The notes beneath the pieces are model-generated. The model was not told the origin of the DNA and searched no databases. It was given only the letters and a program-made list of their open reading frames with translations. A DNA stretch of 64,000 nucleotides. It comes from Okamejei kenojei (Eukaryota). The stretch covers positions 16,802,001-16,866,000 of the forward strand of contig CM069157.1 in assembly GCA_035221665.1 (NCBI GenBank). Direction: 5' to 3'. This document shows positions 44,241 to 54,897 of this stretch, piece after piece. Position numbers and translations under genes: made by a program. Position 1 is the stretch's first letter, and each line of letters begins with the position of its first letter.

Positions 44241-45413
44241 TTGAATCTTTACTTCAGAACCGCCAATGTATTCACCAGGAATGGCTACCAGCTGAGATAT
44301 AAAAGTAACTGCGATGAAATATGAACCAGTTCTGAATTCACTTCACCAGGATCAGGTATTATCCCTGATGTTCTGTAAAGCTGTATTTAGTCAATGAGCT
44401 TCATAGCCCAGGATACAGCTACTGCTCCGTTTCACTGCCTGCAGACTCCATCTACCTGGACTAATTTTATCTTGATGCTAGCTGATATTTTGCACCCGTG
44501 AGACATCCCATGACACAGAATGGGCTCCAAGCTTGCCAAAGCCAAAGGCCTTTGAACAGATTTTATATGCCTTTGATAGCAGAAACATTCACAATTGATG
44601 AAAATACGTTGGCAGGTTAAATAAATACTGTAAAATGCTGGTGGGAGAATTAAGGATGTTAAAGGGGTTATGTGAGAGAATAGGTGACTGGGAAGTAAGT
44701 GAGGGAATAAGATTGATAGAATTGCTGTGAAAGCATGCTCAATGGACCAAATGGCCTCCTTCAGAGGAAATGTAAATATGATTAAGCAAACTTTGAAGAA
44801 TTAATAGAGATGATTTGTATTACTTTTAAACAGTACTTAATGTGATATATGTAAGGAATTGTGGAAGTTCTGGCTGGTACATAGAAATTATGTGGCAACG
44901 CTGACAATACTAGTGATCAAGAGGGTGGCAAAGTTGTCAGCCCTCTTCAAACAGGGCAAGAGCAAGCCGGTCATATTTGTTATCTACCACTTTAGTGAAT
45001 AAGGATGGTGGCAAAAGAAATGGGGTTACAGGAAAATGATGGCTTGAGGGCAGAATTTACAGAAGGAGTTAGAAGCTGGGATCCCAGACCAGTGTGACAT
45101 GGAGATCAGTATTACATGGGGTCACTCCCACCTTCTTTGTGTAAAAATGATCAGGAGTTACAGCATAATGGGATGTATTGCAGGAGATGCAGAACAACAG
45201 TAATATCAATGCAGAAATGATGGGAGATGGCATCACAGAGACAAAGTATGGATCCTTGCATTATGGAAATTAAAATGGGGAAGATTGCACTTTACAGAGT
45301 TAAGTCTTAAATGGAACAGAAAATCAAAATAGACAGTGTATACTTTGTTTAATGTGAATGCCCAGTCAAAATGCATTTGTTTCATGTGTTTTGACAAACC
45401 AATCCATCTGCAA

Positions 45414-45595
45414 GGGTACACAAAAAGCTGGAGAAACTCAGCGGGTGCAGCAGCATCTAAGGAGCGAAGGAGAAGGGTCTCGACCCGAAACGTCGCCTAA
45501 TCTCCTTCGCTCCTTAGATGCTGCTGCACCCGCTGAGTTTCTCCAGCTTTTTGTGTACCCTCGATTCTCCAGCATCTGCAGTTCCTTCTTTAAAA
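45414..45595 (+). mobile_element. Palindromic Penelope-derived short element
   Basis: Perfect 60-bp inverted arms (45414-45473, 45501-45560); 14-bp direct flanks CAATCCATCTGCAA. Confidence 0.85.
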
Positions 45596-50077: not shown

Positions 50078-50997
50078 CACACTCCAACTTGCCAACACCA
50101 TATCTTCTGAAAATTGATTTAAGTGATCCATAACATTTTGAACGTAGCTTATGGTATTCTCAAACTGCCACTGAAGTGGAATGTAGGATAATAGTAAGAG
50201 AATGATATACCACTAAAGGAGGACATTTGGCCCATTACATCTATGTTCACCTACTGAAGAAGATTTCTATTCACCCGCTCTCTCTTCGTATTGTTTAAAA
50301 ACTTTTTAATACATTTATCTATTTGTTTTAGAGTATTATAGATTCTGTTTCCAGCATATAATCTAATATCTGCCTACAAAAAGCATTTCTTCTGACTGTT
50401 ATATTTGCTTTTAACTTAAATATTTCCATTTTAGTCCACCTAGCCAACACATCAGCCATTTAATTAAACAAGGCATCAAAGTCTTTGATCCTTTTAATCT
50501 TCTGTGCTTTCATTGAAAAAGCACCAATTCCCAAATTGATCCAGGTTGTGGGCGGCTTGGTGGAGCAGCGGTAGAATTACTGCCTTACAGCGCCAGAGAC
50601 TCGGGTTCGATCCCAACTATGGGTGCTGTCTGTACAGATTTTGTACATTCTCCCTAAGAATGCGTGAGTTTTCTCTGAGCATTCGGTTTCCTCCCACATT
50701 TCAAAGATGTGCAGGTTTGTAAGTTAATTGGCTTCTGTAAATTGTCCCTCGTGGCTCGGATGGAACTTGTGTACAGTGATAACTGGCCAGTGTGTGTAGA
50801 TGATATGTGTATACACCTTTAATTGATAGTGACGATGTCCATGCTAACCACCCCCCCACCAGTTAGTATAATTATAACCCACACGCCCCTAGCTCTCTCT
50901 CTAGTGATCGTGACAGACCACGTACAGCTAGGGCTGTATATAATGTATGATTAATAAAGTAGTGAAGACCTTAAGGTGTCTATGTACCTTCTCTACA

Positions 50998-51046
50998 TGG
51001 TGTCAGAAGTGGGATTCGAACCCACGCCTCCAGTCGGAGACCAGAA
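50998..51046 (-). other. 3' half of tRNA-Leu(CAA) including CCA, forming an extended PBS; not a functional tRNA gene
   Basis: Reverse complement TTCTGGTCTCCGACTGGAGGCGTGGGTTCGAATCCCACTTCTGACACCA gives 3' anticodon stem, long variable arm, T arm, acceptor strand and CCA. Confidence 0.9.
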
Positions 51047-51226
51047 AGAAGCACTTCTGGCCGTCCCCCCCCGATGCCTTCGTCGCCAAGGGGTTCTCCT
51101 GTCCGTAGCCCCCACCATGCCCTGGCGTCCCCGCTTGTTCCCGTCGGGGAAGGAGGTGATGGTGAGGTGCGGACCCAGTCTGGTCGCCTGGTCAGGCCGC
51201 CGGTCCATTACGGCGATTACGTGTGA
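51047..51226 (+). pseudogene. Probable C-terminal remnant of Ty3/Gypsy pol/integrase (…VRTQSGRLVRPPVHYGDYV*)
   Basis: Stop-free Pro/Ser-rich frame ending in an RSGRxxRPPxxYxDYV*-type motif recalled from Gypsy pol ends; lies just upstream of the PPT. Confidence 0.65.
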
Positions 51227-52199
51227 TTCTGTATTCCCGTGCTTTACTGTTTGCATTTACCCTAGCCAATGAGACGTGGTCGCCCTGTCACTCACTGTTT
51301 GTTTTGGTAGAGGAAGGATGTAGATGATATGTGTATACACCTTTAATTGATAGTGACGATGTCCATGCTAACCACCCCCCCACCAGTTAGTATAATTATA
51401 ACCCACACGCCCCTAGCTCTCTCTCTAGTGATCGTGACAGACCACGTACAGCTAGGGCTGTATATAATGTATGATTAATAAAGTAGTGAAGACCTTAAGG
51501 TGTCTATGTACCTTCTCTACAGTGTGGACCCAGTGAGCCAAAGGGCCTGTTTCCACGCTATATCACTGAACCAAACTAAATTAAACTAAACTAAAGCTTC
51601 ATCAATAACATGGCATCTTTTTTCACATCATTCTTTACAAAGAGAAGGTCTTGTACTTGTTTACGATGAAGGTGAATCTGGCATGAAATTGGCTTTTACT
51701 GAGTATTCTGAGTATTATCTGCGTTATTTTACATGATAATAATTCTGAAATCATTACATATTAAAAATAACACGGAATCGGCCGGCACGGCATTCAATAA
51801 GGGCTTCCATTGATTTAGTGATGTCAAAATAGAGTTTGACAAGCTTGAAAGTAAAAAAAAAAACGATGCTAGAAATCGAAAATTAAAAATGAAAAACTAT
51901 GGAAACGAGAAAGCGAGTTAGGCAGCATTGGTTGAAAGACAAACAGAATTAAAAGTGCAGGCCAAAGAAAGTCTTTGACCTCTTCAGACAGACATTACTG
52001 AATATGAACTGAGGCGTGATTACTCATTATTATACTTTCAAAGATATTTTTGTTAATTGTTAATTTTCATAAAGCCCCATGTAATTGGGAATAAAATGGG
52101 CAGTAAGTATCTGTACCTGGATATCAACATCAACACTAGACTTCAGATGCATCTTCTGCGAGCTTTGTATTTATTAAGTCTCGGCCATTGAATGGGTAA

Positions 52200-54699: not shown

Positions 54700-54897
54700 C
54701 CACTCCAAAGACATACAGGTTTATAGGTTAATTGGCTTGGTAAAATTGTAAATTGTCCCTAGTGTGAGTAGGATAGTGTTAGTATACGGGGATCGCTGGT
54801 CAGTGAGGTCTCGATGGACTGATGTGCCTGTCTCCATGCTGTATCTCGAAACTAACCTAAACTGAACTGAACTAAACTAAGCCAAACTAAACTAAAC
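54700..54897 (+). mobile_element. 5'-truncated HE1/V-SINE-like SINE with (AACTA/G)n tail
   Basis: Shares core and tail with the other copies. Confidence 0.7.

Follow-up and report, generated by a model that had tools for sequence, protein, structure and literature searches.

A 727-bp element in a 64,000-nt stretch of Okamejei kenojei DNA (the whole stretch that was analysed, hereafter the window) is a single-copy, deleted Ty3/Gypsy element that arose from a one-off accident of reverse transcription, and is not a new mobile family. Where its relatives carry a short primer binding site (PBS), it carries a 49-nt DNA copy of the 3' part of tRNA-Leu(CAA), which was very probably made by the element's own reverse transcriptase (RT) reading past the methylated A58 and the probably methylated C of the variable loop, and stalling before the methylated G37. 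The locus is of value because it leads to a class of several hundred copies, in which both the modifications of the primer tRNA and the errors of the enzymes in vivo are recorded.

The element and its copy of tRNA-Leu(CAA)

The element lies at 50795-51521, and consists of two 203-bp LTRs, which are identical at 203 of 203 positions, and an interior of 321 bp; a 5-bp target site duplication (TSD) flanks the whole. Its parts are as follows.

50790-50794, forward strand: TSD, left copy, 5 bp, same as 51522-51526
50795-50997, forward strand: 5' LTR, 203 bp, TG...CA, 203/203 against the 3' LTR
50998-51046, forward strand: DNA copy of tRNA-Leu(CAA) from nt 76 back to U38, 49/49 to the host genes L091 and L092 plus CCA
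51016 (PBS position 19), forward strand: base facing A58, correct in the window copy
51033 (PBS position 36), forward strand: base facing the variable-loop C, a putative m3C site of the e2/47d type, correct in the window copy
51042-51059, reverse strand: 18-nt antisense copy of the family's PBS/leader junction, an exact match to the natural long copies L058 and L059
51042-51046: 5-nt overlap of the antisense piece with the tRNA copy
51052-51064, forward strand: integrase-region stepping stone, 13 nt exact in L058 and L041, 11 nt in L059
51060-51318, forward strand: pol 3' end, 3' UTR and polypurine tract (PPT), with the stop at 51224-51226 and the PPT at about 51306-51318
51319-51521, forward strand: 3' LTR, 203 bp
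51522-51526, forward strand: TSD, right copy, same as the left copy

The preliminary description of the locus had recognised, from the letters alone, an 18-nt PBS followed by 31 further nucleotides of tRNA-Leu(CAA) that reach nt 38. Alignment to the host genome bears this out: once CCA is added to the 3' exon of two host tRNA-Leu(CAA) genes, its reverse complement agrees with the piece at 49 of 49 positions (the chance of such a match being about 4e-25 per window). The host genes have no encoded CCA, and contain an intron of 30-31 nt after G37; the match thus ends at U38, and the proposed 37/38 boundary coincides with the splice site of the host genes. The exact 5' exon was found at 9 host loci, 8 of which have the normal 30-31-nt intron after G37 while one is interrupted. 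In a tRNA-Leu(CAA) gene of the C13 tRNA cluster (L098), about 110 extra, repeat-looking bases were seen inside the intron. Within the window itself, ARAGORN predicted no tRNA gene, and Rfam returned sub-threshold matches only. As the window copy has the correct base at both marked sites (positions 19 and 36) and does not cross the splice junction, the modification and splicing state of its primer is inferred from the class of related copies described below.

The sequence from about 50548 to 50794 and from 51527 onward is the target into which the element was inserted, which we take to resemble a tRNA-derived SINE; a related stretch is present at 54701-54749. Elsewhere in the window, at 45413-45561, there is a perfect 61-nt inverted repeat with a spacer of 27 nt.

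The parent family and the path through the junction

A DNA search of the genome returned 3595 candidate relatives. Among the best 40, which were scored, all but the window's own copy match only from about 51052-51067 onward, and the identity to the pol tail and the sequences behind it (51060-51318) is 95-98%; Pfam gave no match for this segment alone. The natural long copies are about 4.7 kb in length and possess TG...CA LTRs, a short TSD, a tRNA PBS and a PPT. In two ORFs of such a copy (L058), Pfam domains are arranged in the order protease-RT-RNase H-integrase, the protease match being below the curated cut-off, and no env match was found in these 2 scanned ORFs of the 14 listed for the 4.7-kb copy. 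The best matches of the RT among solved structures are 4ol8 and 7q5b (Ty3-G), with E about 1e-60, followed by Pr125Pol and later rows at 1e-25 or weaker; ranked by these E-values, the RT of the parent family appears nearer to that of Ty3 than to those of retroviruses.

The PBS of the parent family is shorter than that of the window copy. In 207 parent-type junctions, 14 nt pair with the tRNA and the leader follows directly, and these same 14 nt begin the 49-nt copy in the window; the 18-nt PBS that had been called canonical is therefore not that of the long copies. At the same LTR end, another 197 junctions match the tRNA over 18 nt or more. The two types are also separated by PBS position 4, at which C, a mismatch to the tRNA, was found in 74 of 100 parent-type and 3 of 100 tRNA-type junctions, and the tRNA-type base in 26 and 97, respectively (by-eye counts of the first 100 listed of each, in which the T class may be enlarged by CpG decay). 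Judging from this split, normal copies appear to inherit their PBS from the parent RNA rather than from the primer, which fits what is described for Ty1 and Ty3, whose primer sequence is not inherited (PMC5371799, section 6). The tRNA-type copies, on the other hand, look like captured first plus-strand strong-stop DNA, a product that is treated as a dead end in the sections on Ty1 and Ty3 of two reviews (PMC5371799, section 6; PMC7472051, section 13). The window copy has the tRNA base at position 4, unlike most of the long copies.

The tRNA copy in the window had been thought to lead at 51047 directly into the tail of pol, by a single jump that deleted gag-pol. This does not hold, since the pol tail starts at 51060, 51042-51059 is antisense PBS and leader, and the sequence contains three joins. 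In window order, the tRNA copy is followed by the plus-sense leader copied backwards, the stepping stone and the pol tail, the successive pieces overlapping by 5, 8 and 5 nt. The stepping stone is located about 290 nt upstream of the final landing, and its overlap is 8 nt on the side of the antisense piece and 5 nt on that of the pol tail; among random landings, a spanning 11-mer was found in 49 of 4162. The first switch, with the same antisense start, recurs in four other copies (L065, L080, L346 and L335), each of which continues differently, and the fold-back in L335 traverses the whole PBS, with the parent base at position 4, into U5.

Under the mechanism that we propose, the RT would have copied its mature tRNA-Leu(CAA) primer past the methylated A58 and past the probably methylated variable-loop C, and stalled before the methylated G37, the 49-nt DNA thus being the first plus-strand strong-stop product. 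Because such a product overshoots the 14-nt PBS, it would be a dead end in Ty3-type replication. It may then have paired through 5 nt with the plus-sense leader, which was copied in reverse into the PBS; a homology of 8 nt would have carried it to the integrase region, and another of 5 nt to the pol tail. Rescue by these three short-homology template switches is likely, and would have preceded integration; as both LTR ends are normal, integrase could have inserted the rescued product. Against this mechanism, numerous junctions of the class lack clean microhomology.

It is possible, but unlikely, that RT copied the tRNA whereas the fold-back and the two hops are the work of host microhomology-mediated end joining of broken cDNA. 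Polymerase-theta-type repair leaves short homologies, fold-backs and tiny templated pieces, and all three are seen at the window junction, the homologies being 5-8 nt. Furthermore, several junctions of the class have non-element landing sequence or bases of no assigned source. However, the landing sites recur at a few spots within the element itself, often antisense, and nearly all products retain two normal LTRs and a TSD (18 of 20 TSDs are exact 5-bp duplications and one has a single mismatch), which is expected for events within the particle before integration. For the later joins, the sequence by itself is compatible with either template switching or host repair.

Rearrangements of other kinds were also observed in the family. 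Among copies with an 18-nt PBS (L004, L005, L008, L009, L013, L044, L174, L181, L185, L193-L199 and L349-L351 being noted), 19 of 25 junctions are antisense in pol, with 17 at two hot spots that offer 6-8 nt of homology, and the four copies that were mapped have differing second junctions, resulting in internal inversions. In L065, L080, L248 and L261, the strand returns to U5 after the tRNA copy, which generates tandem U5-PBS repeats.

Ends and errors of the tRNA copies throughout the genome

The class was collected genome-wide by the pattern of an exact LTR end followed by 25 PBS nucleotides. There are 369 LTR junctions with at least 25 nt of tRNA-Leu(CAA), 153 of which have the T that is correct opposite A58 and 216 a wrong base; rough clustering of 180 fetched contexts by LTR end gave 32 clusters, 7 of them with at least three members. 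In addition, PBS nt 26-49 gave 123 exact matches (80 with a base other than G and 43 with G at position 36), all of which were fetched, yielding 122 distinct contexts. Eleven of the 122 are genes or pseudogenes, all with G at position 36.

Where copying ends was scored in 121 fetched junctions, comprising 92 of the 153 with the correct base and 29 of the 216 with a wrong one. Copying ends between nt 25 and 48 in 104 of them, and 17 reach nt 49, of which 16 end by nt 52; as the score skips positions 36 and 50, the counts at nt 35 and at nt 49 each combine two positions. Before the variable-loop C, at nt 35, there is a weak stop peak (15/99, two positions pooled), and stops at modifications alone leave the spread of ends at nt 25-48 unexplained. 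The peak at nt 42 was considered as an amplified subfamily and rejected, because its copies differ in inversion lengths, subfamilies and position-19 bases and are read as independent; the homology suspected at the nt-42 landing site was not seen in that family's own pol.

Among 126 contexts matching nt 26-49 (genes included), 11 pass over the spliced junction into the 5' exon, and clear entry into the intron was seen in none. Six of the 11 do so unambiguously, for 7-15 nt; in two the sequence also fits the copy's own U5, and in three it is no longer than 5-6 nt. Entry into the intron had been suspected in L038 and L322, but the 3-4 nt that they have in common with the intron end are within chance for about 115 copies. 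The base opposite G37 in the crossing copies is A in 6, G in 2, C in 2 and deleted in 1, i.e. wrong or missing in 9 of 11. Three crossing copies, one of them ambiguous, end at nt 60, just before G26, and two pass beyond.

Since copies cross the spliced junction with no clear entry into the intron, the primers of the class are mature, spliced tRNAs, which are likely to be methylated; the CCA, which the genes lack, had already suggested a mature or processed template in the preliminary description. The crossing copies, most of them wrong opposite G37, show that full-length spliced tRNA was used, and G37 acts as a strong but leaky block. The earlier proposal of read-through at A58 with a stop before G37 is supported by the 14-nt parent PBS, by the host alignment, and by the recurrence of the stop in independent copies. 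This stop was observed on tRNA-Leu(CAA), an intron-bearing tRNA; when over-extended PBSs of other tRNAs were sought with a loose pattern, there were 9 matches, five of them mutated Leu-CAA sites, against 5 in the reversed control.

The alternative raised in the preliminary description, in which a tRNA 3' half or an unligated 3' exon (nt 38-76) served as the primer and was copied to its end, is very unlikely. Although 37/38 is the splice site of the host genes and the window copy alone would have the same sequence either way, at least six copies run 7-15 nt across the spliced junction, most of them wrong opposite G37, and three copies, one of them ambiguous, end at nt 60.

Errors were counted in a main tally of 93 copies, from which 14 contexts whose ends were shifted or decayed, three duplicates, and a gene and an element that had been mis-sorted were left out. 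Position 19, opposite A58, is wrong in 59 of the 93 (A 43, C 9, G 7), and position 36, opposite the variable-loop C, in 65 (A 58, T 5, C 2), while background errors outside positions 19-21 amount to 41/2046 (2%). In a sample unselected on position 36, this position is wrong in 40 of 77 copies and its neighbours in 0-6%. The wrong A at position 36 occurs on both isodecoder alleles (37 and 24 copies).

The wrong bases are most improbably explained by unassembled tRNA gene variants or mutation after insertion. The tRNA genes are in a cluster that is possibly collapsed in the assembly, and positions 20-21 show CpG decay (14 and 10 of 93). On the other hand, all four bases are found at position 19, a non-CpG site opposite A58, which is near-invariant in tRNAs; the background is low, and none of the 80 non-G matches at position 36 is a gene. 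Moreover, A58 and the variable-loop C are present in the host gene and pseudogene loci wherever they could be assessed (11 loci, one of them without its 3' end).

As hundreds of copies have wrong bases or ends at a few tRNA positions, the chemical marks of the primer tRNA are likely preserved in the genome as a fossil read-out. The marked positions would be m1A58, an m3C resembling that at e2/47d, and m1G37, and the ends at nt 60 would reflect m2,2G26. Of these, A58, G37 and G26 are among the standard sites of misincorporation or stops in the parts cited of two tRNA sequencing studies (bioRxiv 10.1101/2024.01.30.575011; PMC8062790). An m3C on the variable loop of tRNA-Leu(CAA) is a prediction, its place being analogous by our own numbering; in zebrafish, the cited part of the preprint gives m3C at e2/47d for Leu-CAG and Ser, not for Leu-CAA (bioRxiv 10.1101/2024.01.30.575011).

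Error rates also differ by family. The correct base is present at position 36 in 12 of 17 copies of the window's family versus 19 of 89 of other Leu-primed families (p=1.4e-4), and at position 19 in 11 of 16 versus 21 of 80. This difference points to element-specific polymerases, and could also reflect differing ages of the families.

The idea of a spreading TRIM-like family, equipped with a primer site of 49 nt and a Pol III box in antisense, is scarcely credible: 727 bp, two identical LTRs, a PBS and a PPT would suit it, but the assembly holds only one copy (when up to 2 mismatches are allowed, the window junction has a single match in the genome), the 5' half of the tRNA is missing and with it any A-box next to the antisense B-box, the repeated junctions have common flanks (L253/254, L264/265, L107/108 and L362-364), and the other repeats are homology hot spots with differing second junctions and position-19 bases. 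One copy (L278) returns to its own PBS after 49 nt; it was considered as a long-PBS parent, and was discarded for being single, deleted and interrupted.

Significance and comparison with known systems

Several hundred integrated copies show that A58 was read through with wrong bases, that copying stopped almost completely before G37, and that mis-landing rescued the products. Both the in vivo error spectra of endogenous RTs and the tRNA methylation in the cells that host transposition thereby become countable from assemblies alone, and the class shows one single-cycle route to TRIM-sized elements and internal inversions. Furthermore, an 18-nt PBS here marks an aberrant copy, the normal length being 14 nt, so that PBS length taken from genomic copies can mislead. 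We consider it fairly probable that Ty3/Gypsy-bearing vertebrate genomes are a large, datable archive of in vivo tRNA reads, with about half of the 5' junctions of the present family derived from dead-end DNA, and with errors that report germ-line methylation, including an undescribed m3C on tRNA-Leu(CAA), and per-family RT error spectra over evolution. The stops have been described for HIV in vitro, and the dead-end DNA for Ty3. An integrated genomic record of tRNA read-through or misincorporation was not encountered in a literature search that covered older virology and subscription papers thinly.

HIV-1 on tRNA-Lys3 has its major stop before m1A58 and minor products that extend to the modified position 37, and in the cited parts of two papers the over-extended product is described as non-functional, with no completed synthesis or integration (PMC13191261; PMC8599865). 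Whether m1A58 halts reverse transcription in living cells, and what becomes of the read-through products, had been debated on the basis of in vitro experiments and a single knockout study, in which read-through DNA is said to be unable to integrate (PMC8599865). The likeness to our class is the major stop before m1A58 with minor read-through to 37; the difference is that here hundreds of products are integrated with their misincorporations preserved, and that the block at 37 is on a Leu tRNA. With the Ty1/Ty3 dead-end DNA, as treated in the cited sections, the class has in common a short PBS, a primer that is not inherited and an overshoot into the tRNA (PMC5371799; PMC7472051). That DNA extends about 12 nt there, whereas here it extends up to 49-65 nt and is captured in integrated copies that are deleted or inverted. 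A review part on mouse ERV PBS variants weighed misincorporation inside the 18 nt and rejected it (PMC7472051).

By its size and parts, the 727-bp copy falls under the definition of TRIMs given in the cited text (<1 kb, two LTRs, PBS and PPT, no protein; PMC10886601), yet TRIMs are multi-copy mobilised families and the window copy is single. Helenus/TRIMp3 elements, which likewise contain tRNA-derived sequence, are described there as having a tRNA-like promoter inside their LTRs and as forming families (PMC10886601); their A and B boxes are in the LTR, whereas the piece in the window is antisense, 3' of the LTR, and without the A-box half. The deleted form of the window copy has a further parallel in the laboratory. 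Pulsinelli and Temin (1991) reportedly obtained large deletions in retroviral vectors from mis-landed strand transfer; the likeness is in large deletions after a strand-transfer error, and those were reportedly single-round events.

The closest counterpart of the read-out itself is misincorporation-based tRNA sequencing, in which the same signals are described, in the parts cited, at m1A58, m3C47d, m1G37 and m2,2G26 (PMC8062790; bioRxiv 10.1101/2024.01.30.575011). In the present case, however, the reads were made by endogenous enzymes, in the germ line in vivo, and have become fixed in the genome.
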